Shown here piece by piece: positions 1 through 14,545 of a stretch of DNA of 16,663 nucleotides. This DNA comes from a virus. Its lineage: Duplodnaviria > Heunggongvirae > Uroviricota > Caudoviricetes. The notes below the pieces were generated by a model. It was given only the letters and a program-made list of their open reading frames with translations, was not told the DNA's origin and made no database searches. The translations under genes and the position numbers were made by a program. The stretch lies in the IMG/VR virus record IMGVR_UViG_2690315994_000023; one strand, 5' to 3'. Position 1 is the stretch's first letter, and the number at the start of each line of letters is the position of its first letter.

Positions 1-171
1 TACCGCCGTGAAGGTTACGAATATGATTGCGTGATGCCTGTTTATCAGTTCCGGCGTGATTTTTCTCTGGTACAGACCGCGCCGCATAACGTGCCCACCA
101 GCAACGCCAGGGCACGGGCAAACATCCAGAAGCTGAAAACCATGGTTAACGGATTCAGGGGCAAGAAATGA
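1..171 (+). CDS. 3' end of an upstream ORF (5'-truncated by the window edge), hypothetical protein
   Basis: Frame 1 is open from position 1 to TGA at 169..171, and the stop overlaps the ATG of the next gene (ATGA at 168..171). It is under 60 aa so absent from the ORF track. The second island has an analogous small ORF coupled to its replicase (11592..11873). Confidence 0.35.
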   Translation, partial: YRREGYEYDCVMPVYQFRRDFSLVQTAPHNVPTSNARARANIQKLKTMVNGFRGKK

Positions 172-740
172 AAAGCGCACCGAACTTAAAAAAACAGCCT
201 TACGACAAGATGACCGAAGTCATTATTTTTGCGGGTAGTGATGCCTGGGCACATGCGAAACAGTGGCAGGAACAGGACGGGCGACTGGCTGGCGATAATG
301 TGCCTCCCGTTGTGCTGGCTGATGATCAACTGGATGAACTGGCAGACCTGAGAATCATCGACGAGGGGCGCTATTGTGTCCGGCTGTACAAGGCAGGCCA
401 CATCAGGCCATCAAATATTAATGCCATTGCGCACAAGCTGGCGGCGGCGGGTGTAACTGATGCGAATTATTACCCCGAAGGGATGCACAGCCATATGCGG
501 GAGAACTGGCGCGAATACCTGGAACGGGTGCGCGGGAAAGAGCCGGCGGAAGAAAAAAACCACCAGCGAAAAACCACGCTACCGATGAGCGTTGGATCTA
601 CCGGATACGACACGCAACTGGATTACGTGGTTAAGGGGATTATTCCGGCGGTATCGCTATGCAGCATATACGGGGCTAGCGGGTCCTATAAATCATTCCT
701 TGCCGGATCGTGGGCGTGCCATGTTGCCACTGGTCGCTAG
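168..740 (+). CDS. Replication initiator, N-terminal part: conserved N-domain plus Walker A P-loop, ending at an in-frame TAG
   Basis: The first ~105 aa align with the N-terminus of the replicase at 11857..13545 (shared FAGSDAW, HAK, AGD..PPV, QLD.L..LRIID.GR, KLA.AGV). The ORF ends just after a P-loop-like IYGASGSYKSFLAG motif, at TAG 738..740. Confidence 0.75.
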   Translation: MKSAPNLKKQPYDKMTEVIIFAGSDAWAHAKQWQEQDGRLAGDNVPPVVLADDQLDELADLRIIDEGRYCVRLYKAGHIRPSNINAIAHKLAAAGVTDANYYPEGMHSHMRENWREYLERVRGKEPAEEKNHQRKTTLPMSVGSTGYDTQLDYVVKGIIPAVSLCSIYGASGSYKSFLAGSWACHVATGR

Positions 741-779
741 TGGGGAGGCCGCAGGGTTGCACATGGTGCGGTTCTCTAT

Positions 780-1568
780 GTGGTTGGTGAAGGCGGTATA
801 GGTGTTCCGCGTCGTGTAAAAGCCTGGGAGGTTGTGCACGATGAGCAGGTGAAAAATCTGTATCTGGTAAACCGCCCCATCTTTCCGGCTGCCCCGCTTG
901 ATGTTGATGAAATGGTTATCGCTGCCCGTCAGGTGGAGCGGGAAACGGGTAAACCTGTACGCATGATTATTCTGGATACGCTGGCGCGTTGCTTTGGTGG
1001 GAATGATGAAAATGATTCCCGTGATATGGGGGCGTTTATCCGTGGTTGTGACGAACTGAAACGACGCACAGGGGCCACGGTGCTGGTGGTTCACCATTCC
1101 GGCAAGGATGAGACGAAAGGCGCGCGCGGTTCCAGTGCATTTCGTGCTTCGCTGGATGCTGAATACCGGATACGCAGGGAGGACGCAGGAAGCGAAGCGC
1201 TGGTTATCTCATGCACCAAAATGAAGGACGCGGAGGAACTCAAAGAAGCCGCATATGACTTACGCGTGGTGGAGCTTTTTACCGACGCTGACGGTGAATT
1301 AATCACGTCGCTGGTGGTGGTGGATGATCCGCGCCCTCCTGTTGAACTGGAGCGCATCGAGGAGGCAGGGAACAAGACGGAAAACCATACCGCGCTATGG
1401 GGATGCATACGTTCACGCACACAGCACGGCGACAAGTGCACGATCCCGCTGTTACGTGACGATATGAAAAAGCTGGGGTATGACACAAAACACCTTAAAC
1501 GATGGTTAGCCAAACTGGAAAAAGACGACGTGATCTACATTGACGGTGATGATGTAGGACCACTGTAA
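780..1568 (+). CDS. Replication initiator, C-terminal part: RepA/DnaB-like RecA-fold ATPase core
   Basis: It is in the same frame as 168..740 (both starts are 0 mod 3). Read-through gives ...ACHVATGR-TAG-WGGRRVAHGAVLYVVGEGG..., the layout expected after Walker A in RepA-like helicases. VLVVHHSGKDETKGARGSSAFRASLD resembles the conserved helicase core. The GTG at 780 has no Shine-Dalgarno, so it is probably not an independent gene. Confidence 0.7.
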   Translation: MVGEGGIGVPRRVKAWEVVHDEQVKNLYLVNRPIFPAAPLDVDEMVIAARQVERETGKPVRMIILDTLARCFGGNDENDSRDMGAFIRGCDELKRRTGATVLVVHHSGKDETKGARGSSAFRASLDAEYRIRREDAGSEALVISCTKMKDAEELKEAAYDLRVVELFTDADGELITSLVVVDDPRPPVELERIEEAGNKTENHTALWGCIRSRTQHGDKCTIPLLRDDMKKLGYDTKHLKRWLAKLEKDDVIYIDGDDVGPL

Positions 1569-1569
1569 A

Positions 1570-1767
1570 AAGTGGGCATTAAAAGTGGGAAAGGTGGGCG
1601 ATTTAACGGAATTTTAACAAAATTACCCACTTTCCCACGTGTATATATCCCAAAAAGTGGGCACTAAAAAAATACCTATGAAACAAGATGATATAAATCC
1701 CAAATTTCCCACGTTGGACGAAGTGGGAAAACGTAAAAAGTGGGCGAAAAAAGTGGGTAGAGGTGGG
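1570..1767. repeat. Iteron array, putative origin of replication of island 1
   Basis: Eleven copies of a 7-bp core. AAGTGGG or AGGTGGG sits at 1570, 1583, 1592, 1655, 1721, 1738, 1751 and 1761. Its reverse complement CCCACTT or CCCACGT sits at 1626, 1634 and 1708. An A/T-rich stretch (1601..1625) lies between the clusters, directly downstream of the replicase. Confidence 0.6.
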
Positions 1768-1770
1768 CAA

Positions 1771-2022
1771 ATGACTCAAAAACACAGAGACAGAACAGAG
1801 CCAAAATATAAAGCGTTAGACATGACAGAGCACGCCTTAAAGGTGGCAATCAGAACGATAGACCGCCACGCGGGGGAAGGATACGCGAAAGCACATCCCG
1901 AACTGATAAGCGCATTCATGACCACGACGGCGGCAAATTTTGCCACGCTGACAGAGCGGGAGATTGCGGAAGCTGAACAGGTGACAACCATCAACGTTAA
2001 AACCGGAGAGGTGGAATCATGA
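1771..2022 (+). CDS. Hypothetical protein (83 aa), translationally coupled to ssb
   Basis: ATG at 1771 is preceded by GAGGTGGG (Shine-Dalgarno-like). The track ORF 1639..2022 extends upstream through the iterons, and that extension is probably not coding. The stop overlaps the ssb start (ATGA at 2019..2022). Confidence 0.45.
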   Translation: MTQKHRDRTEPKYKALDMTEHALKVAIRTIDRHAGEGYAKAHPELISAFMTTTAANFATLTEREIAEAEQVTTINVKTGEVES

Positions 2023-2429
2023 CAGCACAGATAGCAGCTTACGGGCGGCTGGTGGACGACCCGCAGGTAAAACAGACCAGCAAGGGCACACCAATGACGC
2101 TGGCACGTATGGCGGTATCGTTGCCATGTAGTCAGGCGCAGGATGGGCAGGCTACGTTATGGCTATCGGTCATCGCATTTGGTAAGCAGGCCGACTTCCT
2201 GGCTAAACATCAAAAAGGCGATGTTGCCAGCGTATCCGGCACGATGCAGGTCAGCCAGTGGACCGGACAGAACGGGGAAACGCGGCAGGGTTATCAGGTT
2301 ATTGCAGACAGCGTAATCAGTGCCCGTGCGGCACGTCCTGGCGGGAACAGACGCAAAACCACAGGCACACAGGGTAATCAGCCACCAGCGGGAGGCGATG
2401 ACCCTTACGGTGACGGTATTCCGTTCTGA
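2019..2429 (+). CDS. ssb: Single-stranded DNA-binding protein (SSB, OB-fold)
   Basis: The OB-fold region (LWLSVIAFGKQADFLAKHQKGDVASVSGTMQVSQWTGQNGETRQGYQVIADSV) parallels the bacterial SSB core. It is followed by a Gly/Pro/Gln-rich linker and an acidic tail ending DDPYGDGIPF, matching the SSB C-terminal D-D-D-I-P-F type tip. Confidence 0.85.
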   Translation: MTAQIAAYGRLVDDPQVKQTSKGTPMTLARMAVSLPCSQAQDGQATLWLSVIAFGKQADFLAKHQKGDVASVSGTMQVSQWTGQNGETRQGYQVIADSVISARAARPGGNRRKTTGTQGNQPPAGGDDPYGDGIPF

Positions 2430-2910: not shown

Positions 2911-2999
2911 CGATCGGTGCGATTACTGATTTCCTTATGAAAAACGGTTGAGTGTTTGCCGCGTCCTGGAGTTCCTTACTTAACCCCAGGACTTTTTTT

Positions 3000-4157
3000 A
3001 TGCCGAGAATAATCGAATTACGCCAGCAGAAAACCGCCATTAAAAATCAGATGCGCGACATGCTGGAGAACGCGGAAAAAGAAAACCGCAGTCTTAACGA
3101 TGCTGAGGGCGCAAAATTTGACGAATTACGCGCTAAAGCTGAATCCCTCGATAAAGACATTTCCCGCCTTGAAGCCATTGCAGACGAAGAGCGCAGCAAG
3201 CCAGGTAAAAGCAGCCAGACCACTGACCCCGCAGAATTACGCAACTACATTCTGACAGGTGAAACCCGCGCATTAAGTACAGGCGTTCCCGCTGATGGTG
3301 GTTATACCGTTATCCCCGAACTGAACACCGAAATCATGCGAATGCTGACGGATGAATCCACCATGCGCCGCATCTGTACCGTGAAGAAAATCAGCAGCAA
3401 CGAGTTTAAGCAGCTTGTTTCCGCTGGCGGTGCGACCGTTAACCACGGTGAAGAGGGTAAGACACGCGAACAGACCAGCACCCCGCAGATTAACGAGGTG
3501 AGCATTAAGCTGTATCCGGTCTATGCGTACCCGCGCACCACACAGGAAATCGTGGATTTTTCCGATGTGGACATCCTTTCATGGCTGACGGGTGAGATTG
3601 GCGACACCTTCACGGAAACCGAAGAAAGCGATCTGGTTGTGGGCGACGGTGACAAAAAAGCAAAAGGCTTTTTATCCGTACCCCGTGCAGAGAAGAACGA
3701 CAAAGAGCGTGATTTTGGTACGTTACAGGTAATTAAACCTTCCGAATCTCTGGCGTGGACATCTGCGGACCCGCTGATCGACCTGAAATTTGCATTACAT
3801 AAAAAATACCGCAAAAACGCGGTCTGGGTGGTTAACTCCACGACGGCCGCAAAACTTCAGAAGGTGAAGAACGCGAACGGTGATTACATCTGGCGCGACC
3901 GTTTACAGGCGGGTGATCCTGATACGTTGCTGGGCCTTCCGGTCGAATATCTGGAGTTTATGCCTGATAACGTTATTGCCCTGGGTGACTTCAAACGCGG
4001 TTACTACATTGTTGATCACGAAACAGGTGTTCGCACCAGACCGGACAACCTCACAGAGCCGGGCTTCATCAAAATTTTCACGCAGAAATATTTAGGCGGT
4101 GGCGTGGTGGATTCGAACGCGATCAAGATTCTGGAACTGCCACAGGACGACGATTAA
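3000..4157 (+). CDS. Major capsid protein, HK97 family, with N-terminal scaffold-like delta domain
   Basis: ATG at 3000 with AGGA 8 nt upstream. The N-terminal ~100 aa are coiled-coil and charged (IIELRQQKTAIKNQMRDMLENAEKENRSLNDAEGAKFDELRAKAESL), typical of the HK97 delta domain. Length and C-terminal region fit the HK97 capsid fold. Context is protease and portal immediately downstream. Confidence 0.88.
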   Translation: MPRIIELRQQKTAIKNQMRDMLENAEKENRSLNDAEGAKFDELRAKAESLDKDISRLEAIADEERSKPGKSSQTTDPAELRNYILTGETRALSTGVPADGGYTVIPELNTEIMRMLTDESTMRRICTVKKISSNEFKQLVSAGGATVNHGEEGKTREQTSTPQINEVSIKLYPVYAYPRTTQEIVDFSDVDILSWLTGEIGDTFTETEESDLVVGDGDKKAKGFLSVPRAEKNDKERDFGTLQVIKPSESLAWTSADPLIDLKFALHKKYRKNAVWVVNSTTAAKLQKVKNANGDYIWRDRLQAGDPDTLLGLPVEYLEFMPDNVIALGDFKRGYYIVDHETGVRTRPDNLTEPGFIKIFTQKYLGGGVVDSNAIKILELPQDDD

Positions 4158-4167
4158 CAGCATACAG

Positions 4168-4188
4168 AAGGGGCTTAAAAGCCCCTTT
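4168..4188 (+). terminator. Hairpin plus T-run between capsid and protease genes (possible attenuator)
   Basis: AAGGGGC-ttaaaa-GCCCCTT followed by TAGTGTTTT. Confidence 0.4.
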
Positions 4189-4211
4189 AGTGTTTTATGG
4201 GTGAAAAAATT

Positions 4212-4769
4212 ATGAAGAGTATGGAAATCCGGTCATCGGAAATCACCACCAGCGCCAGCAACACGCTTACAGGCTACGTTGTTCGCTGGGATAACCTTTC
4301 AGAGCTGCTATGGGGGGAGTTTTACGAAAAATTCCAGCGGGGAGCGTTTACTGAATGGCTTGCAGCGGGTAATGACGTTCGCGGCCTGTATGAGCATGAC
4401 CACAGCATGTTACTGGGGCGCACCCGTTCCGGCACGCTGAAACTGGAAGAGGACGACACAGGGTTACGCTTTGAACTGACCCCACCGGATACCAGTACAG
4501 GGCGGGACGTTATCGAACTGGTTAAACGAGGTGATATATCCGGCATGAGCTTTGGCTTTCGCTCCCGTAAGGATGTATGGGATACCACAACAGATCCATG
4601 CGTGCGCACCGTGCTGGTGGCGGAACTGTACGAAATTACCGTTACATCCGTACCGGCTTACCCTGATTCCGGCGTGGAGCTGGCCCGCCGCTCCCTGTAC
4701 GAGCAGCACCCCGAAAAAATGCCGCGTGCGGATAATCGCCGCTGGTGGGCGGATTTAGCGGGGGTGTGA
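4212..4769 (+). CDS. Prohead maturation protease, HK97 family
   Basis: Motifs GYVVRWDN, LYEHD, LGRTRSGTLKLEEDDTGLRFE, GDISGMSFGF and ELYEITVTSVPAYPDS fit HK97-type prohead proteases. ATG 4212 has GGTGA upstream; the alternative ATG at 4197 has no ribosome binding site. Confidence 0.85.
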   Translation: MKSMEIRSSEITTSASNTLTGYVVRWDNLSELLWGEFYEKFQRGAFTEWLAAGNDVRGLYEHDHSMLLGRTRSGTLKLEEDDTGLRFELTPPDTSTGRDVIELVKRGDISGMSFGFRSRKDVWDTTTDPCVRTVLVAELYEITVTSVPAYPDSGVELARRSLYEQHPEKMPRADNRRWWADLAGV

Positions 4770-4770
4770 T

Positions 4771-5982
4771 ATGTGGCCTTTCAGAAGAAAAAAAGAGCAG
4801 CGCAGCATGACGCTTGATGAGTTTATGGCGCTGGCCGGCACATCGAACACGGGGGCGGGTGAGTACGTATCATCGGGGACAGCGGAATCACTGCCCGCCG
4901 TCATGAACGCCGTGACGGTCATCTCTGAGGCGGTGGCTACCATGCCGTGTTACCTGTACCTGGTACGCAATGAGAAGGGGAAGGAGGCCCGCGAGTGGCT
5001 TGATTCTCATCCGGTCGATCACATCCTCAACGAGCGCCCGAACGCGTGGCAAACCCCCTACCAGTTTAAGCGAATGATGATCCGCCACTGCCTGTTAAAC
5101 GGTAATGCTTATGCGGTGATTCGGTGGGGGCGTGATGGTTTTCCGGTGGCTTTACATCCTTACCCGCCGCAGTCGGTGAACGTGGAGCAGACAGGTGAGC
5201 ATAACTGGCGCTACTGCATCACTGACGCCTACACCGGAAACACCCGCAACTATTTACCGTGGGAGGTTCTCCACCTTCGTTACTCCACGGATGACGGTTT
5301 TATGGGGCGCTCACCTGTAACCATCTGCCGCGAATCGCTGGGGCTTGGGCTGGCCCAACAACGCCACGGCGCGAGCGTGATGCGTGATGGCATGATGGCG
5401 GCAGGGGTTATCACGTCAGGCGAATGGCTGGACGGCGTGAAGGGCAAACAGGCATTAGCCGCACTGGAACGCTACAAAGGGGCCAGAAACGCCGGAAAAA
5501 CGCCCATCCTTGAAGGGGGTATGAGCTATCAGCAGCTGGGCATGAGTAATCAGGATGCTGAATGGCTGGCCTCCCGTCGCTTCACCATTGAAGACATCGC
5601 CCGAATGTTCAACGTCTCGCCGATTTTTTTGCAGGAATACAGCAACAGCACCTACAGCAATTTCAGCGAGGCAAGCCGCGCATTTCTCACCATGACGATG
5701 CGCCCGTGGCTGGCGAACTTTGAGCAGCAGATAAAAAACGCCCTGCTGGTGGCCTCACCTGTACCTGGTATCCGGTATCAGGTGGAGTTTGACAGCGCGG
5801 ACCTGTTACGGGCCACACCTGGCGAACGCTTTGCCACCTATGAACGCGGCATCAAATCCGGCGTTATGTGCCCGAACGAAGCCCGCGAACGTGAAGGGCT
5901 GTCCCCGCGTGATGGTGGTGATGAGTTCAGCCAGGCATGGAAACAGGAAGTAAAAATCAGCGAGGGAGAAAAACCGGAATGA
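4771..5982 (+). CDS. Portal protein, HK97 family
   Basis: A 403-aa protein starting 2 nt after the protease stop. Its length, composition and position in the head module fit phage portal proteins. Confidence 0.85.
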   Translation: MWPFRRKKEQRSMTLDEFMALAGTSNTGAGEYVSSGTAESLPAVMNAVTVISEAVATMPCYLYLVRNEKGKEAREWLDSHPVDHILNERPNAWQTPYQFKRMMIRHCLLNGNAYAVIRWGRDGFPVALHPYPPQSVNVEQTGEHNWRYCITDAYTGNTRNYLPWEVLHLRYSTDDGFMGRSPVTICRESLGLGLAQQRHGASVMRDGMMAAGVITSGEWLDGVKGKQALAALERYKGARNAGKTPILEGGMSYQQLGMSNQDAEWLASRRFTIEDIARMFNVSPIFLQEYSNSTYSNFSEASRAFLTMTMRPWLANFEQQIKNALLVASPVPGIRYQVEFDSADLLRATPGERFATYERGIKSGVMCPNEAREREGLSPRDGGDEFSQAWKQEVKISEGEKPE

Positions 5983-6317
5983 ACATAGGGCGACTGCGTG
6001 ACAGGGTAACGATTCAGACCCTGAAACAGACCAGGGATATAACCGGCGAAATACTCGAAACGTGGGTGGACGGTCACACACTCTGGGCAAGCGTGAACAT
6101 GATCAGCAGCAAGGAGGCCATTTCATCGGGTGCAGAACTGGCGACTGGAACGGTAAGGATATGGATACGCTACAGGAAGGACATCAACGCCACCAGCCGG
6201 ATAAAGGTCAATACGGGGCCGCTGGCGGGGCGTGTACTGAATATCATCGGGCAGCCGCTGCCGGATGCCGCCAGGACACGCCTTGAAATTCTTTGTCGTG
6301 AGGGCGCGGAAAAATGA
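5979..6317 (+). CDS. Head-closure / head-tail joining protein (SPP1 gp16-like)
   Basis: ATG overlaps the portal stop (ATGA). A ~112-aa protein with RDRVTIQ ... GTVRIWIRYRKDI ... RVLNIIG motifs typical of phage head-tail joining proteins. Confidence 0.7.
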   Translation: MNIGRLRDRVTIQTLKQTRDITGEILETWVDGHTLWASVNMISSKEAISSGAELATGTVRIWIRYRKDINATSRIKVNTGPLAGRVLNIIGQPLPDAARTRLEILCREGAEK

Positions 6318-6610
6318 CAGAAGAACTTATCACCCTGGAAGAAGTGAAACTCCATTGCCGCATCGATGGCGACGAGGAAGACCAGTTAATCAGCGGATAC
6401 ATTGCCGCATCGCTTGAGGCGTGCCAGATACATATAGGCAGGCGCTTTGATGACGGGCTGGAGTTCACGCCAGCCATAAAGATTGGCTGCATGATGTTTA
6501 TCGCTCACCTGTACGAGAATCGCCAGCTGGTAGCGGATAACGCAAAAACGCGCGTACCCATGACGATTGGCGCGCTCTGGACGGCTTACCGTGATGTGGG
6601 GGTGTACTGA
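6314..6610 (+). CDS. Head-tail connector / DNA-packaging adaptor (gp6-like)
   Basis: ATG overlaps the previous stop. The N-terminal LITLEEVKLHCRIDGDEEDQLI and the IAHLYENR motif match gp6-like head-tail connector proteins. Confidence 0.7.
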   Translation: MTEELITLEEVKLHCRIDGDEEDQLISGYIAASLEACQIHIGRRFDDGLEFTPAIKIGCMMFIAHLYENRQLVADNAKTRVPMTIGALWTAYRDVGVY

Positions 6611-7050
6611 TGCCGTGGCAACCATTAAGACGATGCACAGAACCAGGCTGTAACAGGCGCGTGAAGTCCGGCAAGTGTGAGGAGCACAGGCGGGCGGCAT
6701 GGCGTGCAGAGGATGCCAGACGAGGACACCGCCGCGCGCGTGGGTACTCCAGACAGTGGGACAAATACCGCGCCATGTATCTGAGTAAAAACCCGTTATG
6801 CGTGCGATGCCTTGAGAAGGGGATATATACGCCCGCCGTGGTGGTGGATCACATTATCCCGATTAATGGCGGTGATGATGTTCTCTTCTGGCCCGAATGG
6901 AACCATCAACCATTGTGCCAGGCGTGTCATAACCAGAAAACGAAATGGCTTGATCCGGCAACAAAAAGCAAGCGTGCCGCAGGTGGATTTCATGAAGAGG
7001 AAGAACGGGCCGCTAACCGCAATAACTGGATGTATGACGCTGATGAATGA
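6610..7050 (+). CDS. HNH endonuclease (phage packaging-associated)
   Basis: Cys-rich zinc-binding motifs (CTEPGC..., CVRC) and the HNH signature VDHIIP ... NHQPLCQACHNQKT. It sits immediately upstream of terS/terL, as in cos-type HK97-like phages. Confidence 0.85.
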   Translation: MPWQPLRRCTEPGCNRRVKSGKCEEHRRAAWRAEDARRGHRRARGYSRQWDKYRAMYLSKNPLCVRCLEKGIYTPAVVVDHIIPINGGDDVLFWPEWNHQPLCQACHNQKTKWLDPATKSKRAAGGFHEEEERAANRNNWMYDADE

Positions 7051-7216
7051 GCGGGAACAAAACCGCCTTATCCGTGGACTTATAAGGCAGCGTGACGCAT
7101 GGAAGACACAGGAAACAGGGCATAAAGATAAAGCGTCAGGACGCGCAGAACGCATCACAGCGAAGCGATTAACCGACCGTGACCGCGAGGTTATGGAATG
7201 TTTCCGCAATCGCTGA
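7034..7216 (+). CDS. Hypothetical small basic protein (about 60 aa)
   Basis: ATG at 7034 (or 7043) in a frame overlapping the HNH 3' end. The track ORF 6812..7216 is an implausible upstream extension inside HNH. Confidence 0.3.
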   Translation: MTLMNEREQNRLIRGLIRQRDAWKTQETGHKDKASGRAERITAKRLTDRDREVMECFRNR

Positions 7217-7227
7217 TGAGGCTGTAT

Positions 7228-7272
7228 GACGGGGTGGGGGGCGTTTTCAGGACAAACCCGACCCCGCCGGGC
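7228..7272. other. Candidate cos / terminase recognition region (G-run and C-run imperfect dyad)
   Basis: GACGGGGTGGGGGGCG, a 13-bp spacer, then CCCGACCCCGCCGGGC, in the only sizeable intergenic gap between HNH and terS. Confidence 0.25.
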
Positions 7273-7339
7273 ACCGAACGCCTCCTCAAATTTTTATGCA
7301 CGGGAATTTTTTGAAAAATAATCTGGCGAAAAAATAAGC

Positions 7340-7696
7340 ATGGCAAGACCACCGAAAGCCCCCGCCTACCTGGATGATATCGCCGTGAAGCAGTGGCGGG
7401 AAAAATCGCGGCAGCTTGCGGAACGGGGAGACCTTACCCCCGCCGACTGGAGTAATCTGGAACTGTATTGTGTCAACTACTCCATTTACCGGAAAGCCGT
7501 TGCAGACCTTGCGGCGCGCGGGTTCAGCATTGTTAACAGTCAGGGCGGCGAGAGCAGAAACCCCGCATTAAGCGCAAAATCCGACGCTGAAAGAGTGATG
7601 ATAAAAATGGCCTCCTTGCTCGGTTTTGACCCGATAAGCCGCCGTAAAAATCCACCGGAAACAGAAGAAGAGGACGAGCTTGACCGCCTGGAATAA
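7340..7696 (+). CDS. terS: Terminase small subunit, P27 family
   Basis: A 118-aa protein directly upstream of and overlapping terL. The N-terminal PKAPAYLDDIAVKQWREKSRQLAERGDLTPADWSNLELYCVNYSIYRKA matches P27-family small terminases. Confidence 0.75.
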   Translation: MARPPKAPAYLDDIAVKQWREKSRQLAERGDLTPADWSNLELYCVNYSIYRKAVADLAARGFSIVNSQGGESRNPALSAKSDAERVMIKMASLLGFDPISRRKNPPETEEEDELDRLE

Positions 7697-9341
7697 GTAC
7701 GCAGAAGACGTAAAAACGGGCAAAATTCCGGCCTGTAAACGGCTGAAACAGGCCGTTAAACGGTACTTTTCGGACCTTGAAAGCCCCCTTTACACGTTCG
7801 ATCGTGAGGTTGTGGAGCGGTTTATTGCCTTTTCCAGGGTGTGCCCGCACGTAAAAGGCGCAATGCGCGGTAGCCCCATTGAGCTGGAGCCGTGGCAGCA
7901 GTTCGCCTTTGCGTGCATCCTCGGCTTTAAGGTTAAGGCCACCGGACGGCGCAAATACACGAGCGCCTTTATCGAAGTGCCGCGCAAAAATGCGAAATCC
8001 ACGACCGCCGCGATTCTGGCTAACTGGTTTTTGATTATGGAGAACGGTCAGCAGGATATCTACACCGCAGCGGTGAGCCGTGACCAGGCGCGGATCGTCT
8101 TTGATGATGCGCGTCAGATGTGCCTTTTATCCCGACCGTTACGCAGGCGGGTGAATATTCAGGCGCATAAGGTGATACACCCGAAAAGCAACAGCCTGTT
8201 AAAGCCGCTGGCAGCAAAAGCGGCAACCATTGAAGGTACAAACCCGAGTCTTGCCATTGTGGATGAATATCACCTGCACCCTGACAACGGGGTTTATTCC
8301 GCGCTTGAACTGGGAATGGGGGCGCGTCCGGAGGGGCTGTTATTTGCCATCACCACATCGGGGAGCAACGTTGTTTCAGCCTGTAAACAACACTACGACT
8401 ATTGCTGCCAGATACTGGATGGTGAAGAGGTGAACGAATCCATGTTCGTGCTGATTTACGAGCTGGATGATGAAAGCGAGGTTGACGATCCGGCGATGTG
8501 GATAAAGGCGAATCCAAATATCGATGTTTCCGTCGATCGTGAAAAACTGGCCTCAACCATCCAGAAAGCGCGGGGTATTCCGTCGCAGTGGGTGGAAATG
8601 CTCACCAAGCGATTCAATATCTGGTGTCAGGGGGCTACGCCGTGGATGGGTAACGGTGCATGGGCGGAGTGCGCCGGAACGTTCACGGAGGAAGATTTAC
8701 ACGGCCAGGAGTGTTACGCGGGGCTGGATTTATCATCCACAAGCGATATTTCCAGCGTGTGCTATGCCTTTCCGGTCGGTAAAACCATTATGCTGGTTTC
8801 CCGTCATTATCTGCCGGAGTTCCAGCTACAGAACCCCGCCAATAAAAACCGCGCTGTCTATCGTCAGTGGGCTAAAGCGGGCTGGATACGCACAACGCCT
8901 GGCGACTGCATTGATTACGACCGGATCAGAGATGACATCATGCAGGACGCGGAGAAATTTAATATCAGGCTGGTGGGCTTTGATACGTGGAACGCCACGC
9001 ATCTCAGAACGCAATTACAGGGGGCAGGTTTTGAGGTGGAGCCGTTCCCGCAAACCTACCTCAGATTCAGTCCGGCGGCGAAATCGTTCGAAGTTTTTGT
9101 TAACCGCAGGGTGATTGTGCATCGTGGCGATCCGGTGTTGTCCTGGTCGATGAGTAACGTTGTGATGCAGAGTGACGCGAACGCCAATATCAAGCCGAAC
9201 AAGAAAAAATCACCGAACAAGATAGACCCGAGCGTGGCGGCACTGATGGCGTTTGGCACATTCCAGGCAGAGCATGAGGATTTTGAATTCGATATGAGCG
9301 ATAGCCATAAGCAGCGACTTGCCGAATTTACCGGGATTTGA
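7680..9341 (+). CDS. terL: Terminase large subunit
   Basis: A 553-aa protein with a Walker A-like segment (EVPRKNAKST), a Walker B-like stretch (LAIVDEYH) and a C-terminal nuclease-like region. The start is uncertain: TTG at 7680, overlapping the terS 3' end. Confidence 0.88.
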   Translation: MTAWNKYAEDVKTGKIPACKRLKQAVKRYFSDLESPLYTFDREVVERFIAFSRVCPHVKGAMRGSPIELEPWQQFAFACILGFKVKATGRRKYTSAFIEVPRKNAKSTTAAILANWFLIMENGQQDIYTAAVSRDQARIVFDDARQMCLLSRPLRRRVNIQAHKVIHPKSNSLLKPLAAKAATIEGTNPSLAIVDEYHLHPDNGVYSALELGMGARPEGLLFAITTSGSNVVSACKQHYDYCCQILDGEEVNESMFVLIYELDDESEVDDPAMWIKANPNIDVSVDREKLASTIQKARGIPSQWVEMLTKRFNIWCQGATPWMGNGAWAECAGTFTEEDLHGQECYAGLDLSSTSDISSVCYAFPVGKTIMLVSRHYLPEFQLQNPANKNRAVYRQWAKAGWIRTTPGDCIDYDRIRDDIMQDAEKFNIRLVGFDTWNATHLRTQLQGAGFEVEPFPQTYLRFSPAAKSFEVFVNRRVIVHRGDPVLSWSMSNVVMQSDANANIKPNKKKSPNKIDPSVAALMAFGTFQAEHEDFEFDMSDSHKQRLAEFTGI

Positions 9342-9662: not shown

Positions 9663-9873
9663 TTTAATCAAGCAGTTAGCTAAATTGAATTAGTTCATGC
9701 CGTATTGTAAAATACAGAGTCATTATACGTAATTTATTATCACTCTAGATAATTTGTATTCATCATAAATAATTGATGCAGAACGAGATATTTATTTTTT
9801 ATTGGCTCGCATTGTATCATCAGTTATCAGTTACTCCCTGCATACAGTTGTCAAAAAGGTTGTCATTAACTCT

Positions 9874-11109
9874 ATGGCCGAAAATAAACTCTCAGATGTT
9901 CAATTGCGTGCGTTAACCCGCAAAGTCATCGAAAAACCTTTTGATGTTGCTGACGGTGGCAGCCTTTCTGTTCGCGTTACACCATCAAGGCGCAAAATCC
10001 TTGATGGCGAGAAGAGACCGGCCAATAACATCCAATGGTTGTTCCGTTATAAGAATAAGCATAAAAGCGCCAATACTTTGACGCTAGTGCTGGGCAAGTA
10101 TCCTGCCTTATCTCTTGCTGAGGCGAGGGTGAAACGCGACCAATGCAAACGGTGGCTTGCTCATAATCTAGATCCTAAAGACCAGTTTGACCAAGAGTCA
10201 GCAAAAACCATGAAACCTGTCACTATCAGGGAAGCATTGGAACGCTGGATTAATGAGTACGCGGCGGAAAACCGGGTCAACTTTGAAAGGCATAGACGCC
10301 AATTCGAAAGACATATTTATCCTTTCATCGGCGAATTGCCACTTGAACAGTGCTCTAAAGCAAGATGGATGGAGACATTTAGCAGAATCAAAAAAGTCGC
10401 GCCGGTAGCAAGCGGCTACATATTAGGTAACTGCAAGCAGGCGTTGATTCACAACCGCAGGCTGCACGATGTTTACAGTGATGCGCTGGAGGATATCAAA
10501 GTTACTGATGTTGGAAGAAAGCAGGCAAAACGTGATCGTGTTTTAACTTCTGAAGAACTTAGTGGCCTTTGGAATGCGCTAAAAAGCGAATATGCGTTTC
10601 TACCTTACTACACCGCGCTTTTAAAATTGCTAATAGTGTTTGGTGCAAGAACACAAGAAATTCGTCTTTCGACATGGTCGGAATGGAACGTGAAAGAATG
10701 GATTTGGACAGTTCCGCGAGAACATAGCAAGGGTGGGGAGAAAATCATCAGACCCGTGCCTGAATCTATACAGCCATTTATTTTACAGCTACGCCAAAAT
10801 CATCTTGATAGCGGAATGCTGCTTGGTGAAATGAAGAAACCCGAAGCTGTCAGCCAGTGGGGGCGTATCTTATACAGGCGATTAGAGCATTCAACGCCGT
10901 GGACGTTGCATGACCTGCGCCGCACTTTTGCCACCAGTCTAAATAACTTGGGGATAGCCCCGCATGTGGTTGAACAGTTGCTGGGCCACTCAATGCCAGG
11001 AGTGATGGCGGTGTACAACCGTAGCCAGTACATCCCGGAAAAACGGTTAGCCTTGGACAAATGGATAAAATATTTAGAAAAAATAAACCTTTTAAAATCA
11101 GATAATTAA
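9874..11109 (+). CDS. int: Tyrosine recombinase / integrase, P4 type
   Basis: An N-terminal arm-binding-like region (LSVRVTPSRRKILDGEKRPANNIQWLFRY) and a C-terminal catalytic region with HDLRRTFATSL and LLGHS...AVYNRSQY (tyrosine nucleophile). ATG 9874 is preferred over the track's TTG at 9802. Confidence 0.88.
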   Translation: MAENKLSDVQLRALTRKVIEKPFDVADGGSLSVRVTPSRRKILDGEKRPANNIQWLFRYKNKHKSANTLTLVLGKYPALSLAEARVKRDQCKRWLAHNLDPKDQFDQESAKTMKPVTIREALERWINEYAAENRVNFERHRRQFERHIYPFIGELPLEQCSKARWMETFSRIKKVAPVASGYILGNCKQALIHNRRLHDVYSDALEDIKVTDVGRKQAKRDRVLTSEELSGLWNALKSEYAFLPYYTALLKLLIVFGARTQEIRLSTWSEWNVKEWIWTVPREHSKGGEKIIRPVPESIQPFILQLRQNHLDSGMLLGEMKKPEAVSQWGRILYRRLEHSTPWTLHDLRRTFATSLNNLGIAPHVVEQLLGHSMPGVMAVYNRSQYIPEKRLALDKWIKYLEKINLLKSDN

Positions 11110-11591: not shown

Positions 11592-11873
11592 ATGAAGAAA
11601 ACAACCGTAAATCAGGCTATCAGTCGCTATAACAGCCTGTTGCGTAACCCACAGCGCCAGTTAACCGTTGGCGAACTTACCGCCCAGCGTATGGCGGCAG
11701 CACAATTATTGTTGCAAGCATGCATTCGCGAAGGTGTAAACCGCCCGTGGACTATTGTTTCACGTCACGCCGCTATGGCTGATAGCCTGGTGCCGTTTCG
11801 CATCAGCGATTCTGAATCATGGGCGATGTATCTGGAGTTAAAACGCGGGGTGCGATATGAGAAACGCGCCTAA
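11592..11873 (+). CDS. Hypothetical protein (93 aa), translationally coupled to replicase 2
   Basis: ATG 11592 follows the GAGGTGG Shine-Dalgarno, and the 3' end overlaps the replicase start by 17 nt. Confidence 0.5.
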   Translation: MKKTTVNQAISRYNSLLRNPQRQLTVGELTAQRMAAAQLLLQACIREGVNRPWTIVSRHAAMADSLVPFRISDSESWAMYLELKRGVRYEKRA

Positions 11874-13545
11874 CGTTAAGCTATTACCTAAAGACCCTTT
11901 TACGGAAGCAATTATTTTTGCCGGTTCTGACGCTTGGAGCCATGCCAAGGGCTGGGAAGAAGGAATGGGTAAACAAGTTGCCGGTGACACTACTCCTCCT
12001 GTCTATCTTGGGCCAAGACAACTGGATGATTTAGATAATCTACGAATTATCGACGATGGTCGCCGGTCTGCGCGGGTATATCTGGCTGGTGATATTAAGC
12101 AACTTCAAATCAGCACTATTGCTGACAAGCTGGCAGTGGCTGGAGTTAAGGAAGCCCGTTTATTTAAAGGCATTACTGACCGTGAACCGGAAAAATGGAA
12201 CATGGACAGGCTTAGAGACGCCGCCCTACGCGGTGAAAGCCTGGTGGGCATGCTGCGCAAAGAAGAACGAGCAACCGCCGCAGCAACTGTAAAAGACATT
12301 CACGATATGGCTCCTGTATTAATGACAACCTGGCCAAATATTGGAAGCAATGGCCAGCCTTTAAACACACGCCCTAATGTTGAACGTCTATTAGATAACT
12401 ACAGCATTTCTGCAAAATATAATGAGATTAGCAAGGACGTTGAGGTTTTAGTACCTGGCGTTAGTGGCGGTTCAGATGCTCGCGATAACTGCGCTGTGAG
12501 TGAAATTTTAAGCCTCGCCGCACTGAACCGGTTACCAATGAGTAATATTGAAGGTCATATCAAAACTATCGCTGTGCGCAATACTTATAATCCTGTCAGG
12601 GATTTCATCAATCAACGTGAATGGGATGGACGAAGCCGATTTGCAGACCTGCTGAATACTATCAGCACGCCAGATGACTACAGTCGCGATCTGCTGGCCA
12701 TGCTGGTGCGTCGTTGGTTGCTGTCTGCCGTGGCGGCTGCTTACTTAGAAGCGGGTTTCTGGTCCAAAGGCGTGCTGGTTTTCCAGGGCGAGCAGTCACT
12801 GGGTAAAACAGCATGGTTTAAAGCGCTTCTGCCCCCTGACAATCGCAACCTGGTTAAGGTGGGAGCAACTATTGACCCCGGCAATAAAGACAGCGTGGCC
12901 AGCGCAATTAGTCACTGGCTTGTTGAGCTAGGCGAATTGGATGCGACGTTTCGCAAGGCGGATATTGCCAAGCTCAAAGCATTTATCAGCCAGGACCGTG
13001 ATGACCTGCGCCGCCCTTATGACCGGCTTGAATCGAAGTACCAGCGCCGCACCGTGTTTTTTGCGTCAGTGAACCCGAAACACTTCCTGGCGGATGACAC
13101 CGGGAACGTGCGCTGGTGGACCATTCCTGTAACTGCCGTTAACTACGAGCATGGCATAGACACACAACAATTATGGGCCGAAGTTCTTTCCTGGTTTGAA
13201 GCAGGTGAACGCTGGTGGCTGGATCGTGATGAAGAAGCCATGCTGGAAGTAGTGAACGAACAGCACGGGCAAACTGACCCGATTGAAGAAATGATATTGG
13301 CGCGTTTTGATTGGAACAGTGATCGCCTGGCTGCATATATAGAAATGACTGCAACGGATGTTCTGTTGTCTATTGGGCAGGATCGGCCAACAAAATCCCA
13401 GGCAACGCAGTGCGGTAACATTCTGCGAAAACTGACTGGAAGGGATGCACGTAGAACAAGTAAAGGGCGTTTTTACCTAATGCCACCGAAAGTTTTTGGA
13501 CAGCAAGACCATAGCTATTTTGATGGGCCTAACCGCCAGTTTTGA
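11857..13545 (+). CDS. Replication initiator: conserved N-domain + P4-alpha/VirE-like P-loop NTPase (primase-helicase type)
   Basis: The N-terminal ~105 aa are homologous to those of ORF 168..740. The central and C-terminal part has Walker A GEQSLGKTAWFKAL and downstream motifs (LVELGELD, RTVFFASVNP) of the P4-alpha / D5 / VirE-type superfamily-3-like NTPase found in satellite primases. Confidence 0.8.
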   Translation: MRNAPNVKLLPKDPFTEAIIFAGSDAWSHAKGWEEGMGKQVAGDTTPPVYLGPRQLDDLDNLRIIDDGRRSARVYLAGDIKQLQISTIADKLAVAGVKEARLFKGITDREPEKWNMDRLRDAALRGESLVGMLRKEERATAAATVKDIHDMAPVLMTTWPNIGSNGQPLNTRPNVERLLDNYSISAKYNEISKDVEVLVPGVSGGSDARDNCAVSEILSLAALNRLPMSNIEGHIKTIAVRNTYNPVRDFINQREWDGRSRFADLLNTISTPDDYSRDLLAMLVRRWLLSAVAAAYLEAGFWSKGVLVFQGEQSLGKTAWFKALLPPDNRNLVKVGATIDPGNKDSVASAISHWLVELGELDATFRKADIAKLKAFISQDRDDLRRPYDRLESKYQRRTVFFASVNPKHFLADDTGNVRWWTIPVTAVNYEHGIDTQQLWAEVLSWFEAGERWWLDRDEEAMLEVVNEQHGQTDPIEEMILARFDWNSDRLAAYIEMTATDVLLSIGQDRPTKSQATQCGNILRKLTGRDARRTSKGRFYLMPPKVFGQQDHSYFDGPNRQF

Positions 13546-13834: not shown

Positions 13835-13848
13835 CAAAGTGACGCCTA

Positions 13849-14151
13849 GGTGTCATTAATTTATAAGGTGTCATGGTAGGTGTCATTGTTCTCAAGCCAT
13901 AACCCGCAAGGGTTGCGACATTACTAATGACACCTATGACACCTATGACAGCATTTTTAAAGAAAATAACGACCACTGTAATAATGTAACAGTGGTCGTT
14001 ATACTTTATAGAAATGGGTGTCATGGTGTCACAGGTGTCATTCATTACAGTATCTTGTTTGTATTTTTCTTTAATAATCAGCGTGTTTCCCGCTATGACA
14101 CCTAATGACACCTTTCCAACATAACGCCGTCATGGTGACATTAGGTGTCAT
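13849..14151. repeat. Iteron array, putative origin of replication of island 2
   Basis: GGTGTCAT at 13849, 13867, 13879, 14017, 14034 and 14144. Its reverse complement ATGACACC at 13927, 13936, 14095 and 14105. Variants GGTGTCAC at 14025, GGTGACAT at 14134, and a partial at 13945. The array has an AT-rich centre. Confidence 0.65.
13966..14002. repeat. Perfect 14-bp inverted repeat (ATAACGACCACTGT / ACAGTGGTCGTTAT) with 9-bp AT spacer, at the centre of the iteron array
   Basis: Exact reverse-complement arms at 13966..13979 and 13989..14002. Confidence 0.6.
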
Positions 14152-14545
14152 CGCCATCTGCTGCCAAAAAAGTCAAGGTACTTCCGAGGGGGGTACAGCC
14201 TGCGGGGGCATTGGTCCCGCGTAATTCGCGTTGTGCGTGCCCCTACAAAACTCACTTTATGATTACGTCAAGTAAATCAATCATTTATGTGAATCCTATC
14301 AAAGCACTGGAACCATAATTGCGAGATTGCAAAATAAAGCGAACACGTTTTACACACGCTGAATTGTAAAGATGTGTAAATATCGATTACGCCGGATTAT
14401 GCCTGGTTATTTGCAAGTATTCATGGTTATAAGTTACTGATTTTACATTAAAAAGCTCACATTGTGGCTATTGTGTTCGGCCTGGTTACTGTATATCTTT
14501 AAGTCATTCCAGACGATTTATTGCACAACAACCGGAGCATTTTTA

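Follow-up and report, generated by a model that had tools for sequence, protein, structure and literature searches.

The locus described here raises the question of what a dense cluster of short repeats, lying directly 3' of a helicase gene, is used for and which protein reads it. The cluster occupies positions 1570 to 1767 of the stretch of DNA that was analyzed, which measures 16,663 nucleotides and is called the window below (all coordinates refer to it). A first-pass annotation, made from the letters alone, had taken the cluster for an iteron-type origin in the place 3' of the replicase where PICI origins usually lie. We computed the array and its significance, its layout in relatives, the fold of the C-terminal end of the helicase, and the co-variation between residues of this protein and bases of the repeats. 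The earlier reading is supported in each of its parts, and the comparison with relatives goes further: the layout is conserved in 76 loci, and the repeat word co-varies with a residue of the winged helix of the helicase. We consider it probable that 1569-1770 is the replication origin of the island and that it is read by the C-terminal winged helix of RepA.

Host element and genes around the array

The window is part of an E. coli chromosome, and positions 1 to approximately 9400 form the right two-thirds of a capsid-forming PICI (cf-PICI). In this first island, the gene for the RepA-family helicase is followed by a 202-bp spacer, an 83-codon gene, and the genes for a single-stranded-DNA-binding protein (SSB), PerC, and the HK97-type capsid, protease, and portal proteins; after the portal gene come those for head completion and connector proteins, HNH, TerS, and TerL. 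Every packaging gene in 2952-9341 has a Pfam match, which places the element among the cf-PICIs. The island of NZ_CP027355 is 99.8% identical and runs from integrase to terL inside a split tqsA gene, with a length of about 14 kb, and in an O157:H7 relative the genes follow one another as in the prototype, EcCIEDL933. Between about one-quarter and one-third of complete E. coli genomes contain a cf-PICI, and cf-PICIs replicate after induction (10.1101/2022.09.08.507074, Fig. S3 legend).

The gene directly 5' of the array is repA (168-1568, plus strand, 466 codons), which encodes a RepA-family helicase (AAA_25, RecA-fold, DnaB/RSF1010-RepA-like). The first-pass annotation had placed the array downstream of the first replicase, and this holds, with one nonsense codon in the gene; Pfam AAA_25 is matched by both fragments. 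The TAG codon at 738-740 (Q191*) results from a single C-to-T change at 738 compared with the intact 466-aa RepA of NZ_CP027355, and all relatives have CAG. This change is private, as it occurs in 0 of 5,426 complete E. coli genomes (best match, 99.7%). Judged by the sequence, either repA is a pseudogene in this strain or the base is a sequencing error. With the nonsense codon in place, firing of the origin would require an intact RepA of matching specificity in trans. The protein with Q191 restored is identical to WP_053877286.1.

The first gene after the spacer (1771-2022, plus strand) codes for a hypothetical protein of 83 aa with no Pfam or NCBIfam match. Its real start is ATG 1771 and not GTG 1639. 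In all six E. coli records examined, PGAP starts this gene at the ATG equivalent to 1771 and leaves the spacer unannotated, and the spacer alignment contains 1-nt indels upstream of this ATG in relatives. The doubt expressed previously, that the open reading frame starting at 1639 is probably not coding where it runs through the repeats, was therefore justified. The island-encoded SSB (2019-2429, plus strand; Pfam SSB, E=4e-17) probably belongs to the same replication module. For PerC, the mechanical open reading frame at 2320-2712 starts at GTG 2320 and overlaps the SSB gene; the start of the PGAP homologue corresponds to position 2440.

Repeat content and statistics of the array

There are 11 GTGGG cores in 1570-1767, present as seven AAGTGGG, two AGGTGGG, and two ACGTGGG copies, eight in direct and three in inverted orientation. 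The 11 copies in both orientations reported earlier are thus a correct count if the two degenerate forms, AGGTGGG and ACGTGGG, are allowed. On the plus strand, AAGTGGG starts at 1570, 1583, 1655, 1721, 1738, and 1751 and AGGTGGG at 1592 and 1761; on the minus strand, there is AAGTGGG at 1626-1632 and ACGTGGG at 1634-1640 and 1708-1714. All seven exact AAGTGGG copies of the 16,663-base window fall within 1570-1757. For A[AG]GTGGG, 9 of the 10 copies in the window lie inside 1560-1780, and for the GTGGG core this is 11 of 36. The iteron core measures 7 to 10 nt, and the spacing between iterons is irregular, at 9 to 17 bp.

A comparison of motif density with shuffled sequence and with the rest of the window had been proposed together with the origin reading, and it showed strong enrichment in 1570-1767. 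When any 7-mer and any 200-bp window were allowed (6- and 7-mers were scanned), the seven copies exceeded the result of all 200 dinucleotide-preserving shuffles (mean 3.4, maximum 5). When only the spacer was shuffled (n=2000), GTGGG occurred 0.79 times on average and at most 4 times, compared to the 11 observed. These statistics exclude chance as the source of the array. A longer unit of 25 nt (starting with GTAAAAAGTGGGC) occurs three times, at 1565, 1650, and 1733, with spacings of 85 and 83 bp, or about eight helical turns. This suggests either a higher-order periodicity in the origin or an origin that was built by triplication.

The window contains two satellites in tandem. The integrase gene of a second island (9802-11109) is located about 460 bp after terL of the first one (7680-9341); in NZ_CP027355, the same site holds the first island only, followed by the tqsA remnant. 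The second island has an unrelated array, with about 13 copies of AGGTGTCAT in both orientations at 13848-14154, which is the sole other word cluster in the window that beats the shuffles. About 300 bp separate this array from the 3' end of the VapE-type primase/replicase gene (11857-13545), and the array surrounds A+T-rich stretches at approximately 13950-14015 and 14040-14090. It is probably the second island's own classical PICI origin.

Organization of the spacer

The array fills the 202-bp non-coding spacer between the end of repA at 1568 and the ATG of the next gene at 1771. The array had been described as flanking an A/T-rich stretch, and both base composition and duplex stability agree with this: the spacer has a G+C content of 39%, compared to 51% for the window, and within the part of the window that belongs to the first island, no 100-bp stretch has a less stable duplex than 1600-1700 (dG of -119.9, against a mean of -143.9 and a standard deviation of 8.7).

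The left array consists of three direct iterons, AAGTGGG at 1570-1576, which starts 2 nt after the repA stop codon, AAGTGGG at 1583-1589, and AGGTGGG at 1592-1598. A first A+T-rich spacer without repeats (GATTTAACGGAATTTTAACAAAATTA, 1599-1625) leads to the pair of inverted iterons at 1626-1640. Between the inverted copy and the next direct copy lies a conserved central element, TGTATATAT (1640-1648), which is almost invariant in the alignment of E. coli spacers and is a candidate nucleation site for melting. The central direct iteron AAGTGGG follows at 1655-1661 and forms, together with 1626-1632, a perfect 8-nt inverted repeat (CCCACTTT / AAAGTGGG) with the two parts 20 nt apart. The next stretch, 1662-1707, is a repeat-free, A+T-rich gap of low stability and constitutes the putative DNA-unwinding element; the spacer alignment shows little conservation of its sequence and a maintained composition. 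An inverted iteron (1708-1714) marks the left edge of the right array; in its place, relatives have a direct copy a few nucleotides downstream. The right array itself has four direct iterons (1721-1767, plus strand). The last of these, AGGTGGG at 1761-1767, overlaps the GAGGTG ribosome-binding site located 5 nt upstream of ATG 1771, and this overlap is retained in relatives that use other words (GTGAGGAATG, GTGGGGAATG).

We found no DnaA box (with up to 1 mismatch) in 1569-1770 and no IHF site in the spacer, and a scan of the spacer and its vicinity gave no sigma-70-like promoter and no intrinsic terminator. The array sits inside a unidirectional transcription unit. A spacer without any of these sites fits with a self-contained initiator and with transcription through the origin. 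Folding of the spacer as RNA or single-stranded DNA revealed nothing besides the inverted copies. In the remainder of island 1, the shuffle scan and the stability profile showed no other repeat cluster and no other A+T-rich candidate origin.

Conservation of the layout in relatives

We compared the region following repA in 80 loci of other Enterobacterales (RepA identity of 52 to 72%), five E. coli variants, and one Klebsiella element and retained the loci with at least 5 copies of a word in the 240 nt after the repA stop codon. This resulted in 76 loci, with RepA identities between 52 and 100%, from Escherichia, Xenorhabdus, Pectobacterium, Serratia, Morganella, Kosakonia, Klebsiella, and other genera. 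The same layout is present in these 76 loci: direct copies, an inverted copy, TGTATATA, a direct copy, an A+T-rich gap of about 45 nt, and again direct copies. Counted from the repA stop codon over all 76 loci, there are 153 direct copies at +0-29, 104 inverted copies at +40-69, 70 direct copies at +70-89, and 238 direct copies at +130-199. The interval at +90-129, which is homologous to the gap at 1662-1707, is nearly empty, with 5 copies. The mean A+T content of this homologous gap is 71%, compared to 49% for the 3' end of repA. Of the 76 loci, 23 have inverted copies at +130-139. A TATA-type element between the central pair of copies is found with a loose pattern in 65 of the 69 loci that have the pair and with a stricter pattern in 44 of the 76, and the spacing of the central pair is 24 nt in 52 loci.

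In nine of about 85 loci, the arrays are eroded or absent within 240 nt of the repA stop codon. These loci with fewer than 5 copies (L023, L031, L050, L068, L071, L072, L074, L076, and L079) include some with a damaged repA, such as an internal deletion in L023 and an altered C terminus in L079. They may be decaying elements, or their origins may be located elsewhere.

Two of the other loci deserve separate mention. In Xenorhabdus beddingii (L004), the GTGAGGA array is directly followed, at 4290-4390 of that locus, by a second array of GTGGGGA/ATGGGGA, complete with an inverted copy and a TGTATAT element, so that two origin-like arrays of different specificity lie in tandem. The Klebsiella pneumoniae element (L087, CP018459.1; 16,971 bp, circular) is a cf-PICI-like element that was deposited as a non-mobilizable plasmid. 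It carries genes for an integrase, RepA, capsid, adaptor, TerS, and TerL, and its array follows the standard layout, with GTGCGGC iterons and S442. An additional gene of 3.4 kb is annotated as tail tape measure protein and would not be expected in a cf-PICI. The GC skew of this circular element was uninformative.

Co-variation of the repeat word with residue 442 of RepA

The 5' half of the iteron, AAGTG, is constant, and the 3' half is lineage specific. The latter is GGG in the window, GGGGA in O157 and in several Pantoea and Kluyvera loci, GGGGGA in Pectobacterium, Serratia, and Morganella, AGGA in Xenorhabdus, and CGGCA in Kosakonia, Phytobacter, Enterobacter, Kluyvera, and Klebsiella. All copies in one element carry one lineage word (GTGGG, GTGGGGA, TGGGGGA, GTGAGGA, or GTGCGGC). 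In E. coli 89-3156, GTGAG is present at all 11 positions where the window has GTGGG, with the same spacing. Such a concerted change of the word is the signature that would be expected of an array of sites read by one co-evolving protein.

Of all RepA alignment columns, that of residue 442 shares the most mutual information with word class, and only residues 438, 442, 452, and 458 rise above 1.5 bits. The identity of residue 442 goes together with the variable base in 76 of 76 loci, with H for G in 13, K for G in 30, N for A in 25, and S for C in 8. The pairing of H or K with G, N with A, and S with C corresponds to the usual amino acid/base preferences. From the GTGAG array we had predicted beforehand that E. 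coli 89-3156 would have N442, and this was confirmed. Its RepA reads DVKNMRRWL at this position, compared to DTKHLKRWL in the window; the last 70 residues differ at about seven positions, of which four lie at 440-444.

The tail of RepA is exchanged in a modular way. In L033 compared to L038 and L039, and in L036 compared to L035 and L037, the helicase cores are 94 to 95% identical, the segments formed by the last 42 residues are 38 to 42% identical, and the words differ. In an ordering of the loci by helicase core, elements of the GTGGGGA and GTGCGGC classes are mixed with one another. The gene upstream stays unchanged, and the gene downstream shows no correspondence with the repeat class. As the DNA coding for the tail adjoins the array, linkage contributes to the co-variation and is not fully separable from selection. 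The occurrence of the same residue-base pairs in distinct core lineages, with few flanking substitutions, argues for recognition and not for linkage alone. The N/A pair recurs in Xenorhabdus, E. coli 89-3156, and "Candidatus Pantoea bathycoeliae" (L081), and the S/C pair recurs in Citrobacter (L003) and in the Klebsiella element (L087). Genomes with two islands do not always have different words: the pairs in Xenorhabdus and Pectobacterium share a word, and the pair in Pantoea dispersa differs.

The predicted winged-helix tail of RepA

Residues 395 to 466 of RepA (1350-1565, plus strand) form a predicted C-terminal winged-helix domain. In a structure model of 262 residues, a winged helix is predicted with confidence for the C-terminal 65 residues; the ATPase part of this model is poor (pLDDT 40 to 70), and the model was used for the tail only. 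The third helix of the winged helix comprises residues 443 to 452 (1494-1523, plus strand), and in the model H442, the specificity residue (codon at 1491-1493, plus strand), forms its N-cap. A profile search of PDB sequences found no sequence relative of the tail; Atg16, which came up in this search, was rejected as a chance hit. In the phage collection there were only core-level relatives of the helicase, all of them without the tail.

The helicase core gives a weak match to RSF1010 RepA, a hexameric helicase (1g8y, E=0.006). We detected no primase domain in RepA, and the motor is not of the SF3/D5 type. The neighbor of the array is an AAA_25 helicase and no Rep_3-type protein was found, nor is there a RepB or RepC homologue among the neighboring genes. 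Residues 1 to 130 of RepA (168-557) align at 72% identity with the start of a "primase-like DNA-binding domain-containing protein" located on a 10.8-kb E. coli plasmid (NZ_CP148328), and in most non-E. coli relatives these N-terminal 130 residues are replaced by an unrelated N terminus. The exchanged N terminus and the variable tail together indicate that the replicase is modular at both ends.

Comparison with known origins

PICI origins are located 3' of rep and have two sets of iterons that flank an A+T-rich region (PMC6092414, PMC9371898). For SaPI Reps, it was shown that a C-terminal winged-helix domain reads 6 to 12 short iterons just 3' of rep, around an A+T-rich center, and that no loader is needed (PMC9371898). 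The array in the window has the corresponding properties: the first iteron lies 2 nt after the stop codon of the putative initiator gene, a position immediately 3' of repA that is found likewise in the 76 loci; there are 11 iterons, within the range of six to twelve penta- to heptanucleotides, with a GTGGG core and the consensus AAGTGGG; two sets surround the A+T-rich gap at 1662-1707; and a C-terminal winged helix is predicted in RepA. The likeness to SaPI1, SaPIbov1, and SaPI5 (PMC9371898) thus extends from the short (5- to 7-nt) iterons in two blocks and both orientations, immediately 3' of rep, to an initiator that is itself a helicase, with a C-terminal winged helix as the predicted reader and Rep and ori matched per element. 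The orientation of the copies resembles, but does not coincide with, the SaPI rule of at least two opposed iterons on each side. The window has two inverted copies to the left of the gap (1626-1640) and one to the right (1708-1714), and in the family the inverted copies lie to the left of the gap, with copies to the right only in 23 of the 76 loci.

The motor is where the two systems differ. SaPI Reps are AAA+ superfamily-3 helicases that move 3' to 5', with a primase encoded or fused upstream, whereas RepA of the window has a RecA-fold AAA_25 ATPase of the RepA/DnaB-like type, no detected primase domain, and no detectable sequence similarity to SaPI Reps. Relatives of this ATPase move 5' to 3'.

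The element EcCICFT073, whose cloned rep-ori maintains a plasmid (PMC6092414), shares with the window the host species, the satellite class, the unidirectional gene order, and two iteron sets flanking an A+T-rich region (pri-rep-ori; PMC6092414, Fig. 2), but its replicase is a Pri-Rep (primase/VapE or D5 type) and its iteron words are different. The cf-PICI lineage with a RepA-type helicase was outside the analysis in that paper (PMC6092414). The second island in the window, with its array at 13848-14154, is of the classical EcCICFT073-like type.

For plasmid RSF1010 (IncQ), the likeness consists of the nearest solved relative of the helicase core and of iterons next to an A+T-rich region. In RSF1010, however, a separate RepC reads 20-bp iterons and RepA is tail-less, whereas in the window the predicted reader domain is fused to the helicase. 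With only the core related, an extra winged-helix tail, and neither RepB nor RepC, the island does not belong to the IncQ group. In satellite P4, the alpha protein binds the origin through a C-terminal winged-helix domain, which reads short, repeated octamers, and one polypeptide recognizes and unwinds the origin. The first island resembles P4 in being an E. coli satellite for which both functions would reside in one protein, but alpha is a primase plus SF3 helicase, its repeats lie in two separated regions (ori and crr) and use other words, and we detected no sequence relation. The AAA_25 motor, the lack of a detected primase domain, and the single compact array set the island apart from the P4 alpha/ori-crr type (for a mention of P4 alpha and its ori, see PMC6092414).

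Classical iteron plasmids (F RepE, R6K pi, pPS10 RepA, and RK2 TrfA; PMC4980987) have a winged helix that reads iterons beside a DNA-unwinding element and a specificity that determines incompatibility, as is proposed for the window, but their initiators are not helicases, their iterons of 17 to 22 bp are spaced at the helical repeat, and they have DnaA boxes and need host DnaB-DnaC. The iteron core of 7 to 10 nt, the spacing of 9 to 17 nt, and the lack of a DnaA box place the array outside this class (Rep_3/RepE/pi, WH1-WH2). With Orc1/Cdc6, SV40 large T antigen, and papillomavirus E1, there is an analogy at the level of fold and architecture only, and generic winged-helix regulators score almost as well.

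Alternative readings of the array

The array could instead be an operator, through which the winged helix of RepA or another regulator controls transcription of, or read-through into, the SSB, perC, and packaging genes, with replication starting elsewhere or by means of the helper phage. This would suit an array that is embedded in a transcription unit running in one direction, has neither a terminator nor a sigma-70-like promoter in its vicinity, and overlaps the ribosome-binding site of the next gene with its last copy. Initiators that bind iterons commonly autoregulate, as is known from iteron plasmids. However, the same lack of a promoter leaves no promoter-like site to regulate, and the eleven sites, arranged in two blocks that enclose a conserved A+T-rich gap and a TATATA element, are more than an operator would require. 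No other candidate origin is present in island 1, and the arrangement matches that of PICI origins proven by experiment (PMC6092414, PMC9371898). We therefore regard an operator without origin function as improbable; within the origin reading, the iteron sites might also serve autoregulation.

It is also conceivable that the array is an origin with a different reader, either a host factor or another island protein, so that RepA would act as helicase only, in an IncQ-like manner. RSF1010 RepA, to which the core is closest among solved structures, lacks a DNA-binding tail and relies on RepC, and these islands do encode several small proteins of unassigned function. Against such a separate reader, only the C-terminal approximately 40 residues of RepA track the repeat class, and neither flanking gene does so: the one upstream does not change, and the one downstream shows no such correspondence. 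The rule linking residue 442 to the base holds in every one of the 76 loci and correctly gave N442 in advance, the tail is confidently predicted to be a winged helix, and the spacer has no DnaA boxes or IHF sites. A reader other than RepA is accordingly very unlikely.

A third possibility is that the repeats are a packaging recognition site (cos/pac) or a site for satellite recombination. The island has its own TerS, TerL, and HNH genes, and terminase small subunits often recognize repeated short sites. Nevertheless, the word co-varies with RepA and not with packaging genes, and the array lies 5.5 kb from terS, whereas cos sites of the HK97 type adjoin the terminase genes. Moreover, the second island, which lacks a terminase, has an equivalent array beside its own replicase, and we give this possibility hardly any credence.

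As far as sequence analysis reaches, a coding region (open reading frame 1639-2022 or the minus-strand open reading frame 1603-1785), a structured RNA, and a chance low-complexity stretch are refuted and can be set aside with near certainty: mechanical open reading frames do cross the region and its RNA fold is slightly more stable than that of shuffles (z = -1.85), but the shuffle statistics exclude chance, relatives have frame-breaking indels and annotated starts always at ATG 1771, Rfam gives only chance-level matches to eukaryotic miRNAs and snoRNAs (E = 0.5 to 1), and the fold signal is accounted for by the inverted copies.

Proposed mechanism and implications

For an origin read by RepA, we propose a scheme modeled on the SaPI Reps (PMC9371898) and on the origins of Gram-negative PICIs (PMC6092414), from which we infer binding, melting, self-loading, and the use of the host primase (DnaG). 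After induction by a helper phage and excision, RepA subunits would bind the iterons cooperatively. The C-terminal winged helix would read the iterons, with the invariant R445, W446, and K449 of the third helix contacting the constant AAGTG half and residue 442, aided by residues 440, 443, and 444, reading the variable base. RepA would then assemble on both sides of TGTATATAT and the A+T-rich core, melt the core, and load itself as a ring helicase, so that neither a separate initiator nor a loader would be required. The SSB of the island and the primase and polymerase of the host would complete the replisome.

The kind of origin as such is already known, since SaPI and Gram-negative PICI origins are established to be read by the winged helix of the replicase. 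What has not been described is the origin of the cf-PICI lineage and its RecA-fold motor, both of which are absent from the literature searched. In the cf-PICI papers searched there was no mention of iterons or of an origin, and searches for the repeat words together with "iteron," or for a fusion of a RepA helicase with a winged helix, returned nothing relevant. The departure from the characterized PICI and SaPI replicases is the motor, which is a RecA-fold AAA_25 domain and not an SF3 AAA+ domain, and there is a reasonable chance that this helicase-initiator is a mechanistic variant. We see it as an even question whether RepA of these islands represents a distinct class of self-loading initiator-helicases, in which a RecA-fold motor (SF4-like, of the RSF1010-RepA/DnaB type) carries its own origin-reading winged helix, converging on the solution found by SaPIs, P4, and SV40, presumably with the opposite polarity and with a specificity largely set by residue 442. 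RecA-fold helicases of the RepA type are not known to load themselves.

cf-PICIs are widespread and move between species, and in the literature searched their replication module has not been dissected. The present analysis provides a concrete element of 200 bp and a domain of 70 residues, together with a family-wide architecture and a specificity rule based on one residue. If the behavior of this system is ordinary, it is simply the expected origin of one more PICI lineage, as a satellite specialist would anticipate. The origin reading would also account for the presence of differing tails on closely related helicases, as these would reflect replicon specificity or incompatibility between satellites, and the four natural pairs of word and residue could be used as orthogonal mini-replicons. 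If a RecA-fold helicase does load itself, origin recognition would be fused to a DnaB-like motor, whereas cellular systems use separate proteins for these functions. If the 442 code is true, it would make these satellites a set of natural, re-programmable, orthogonal replicons, in which co-resident or competing satellites do not cross-activate each other.
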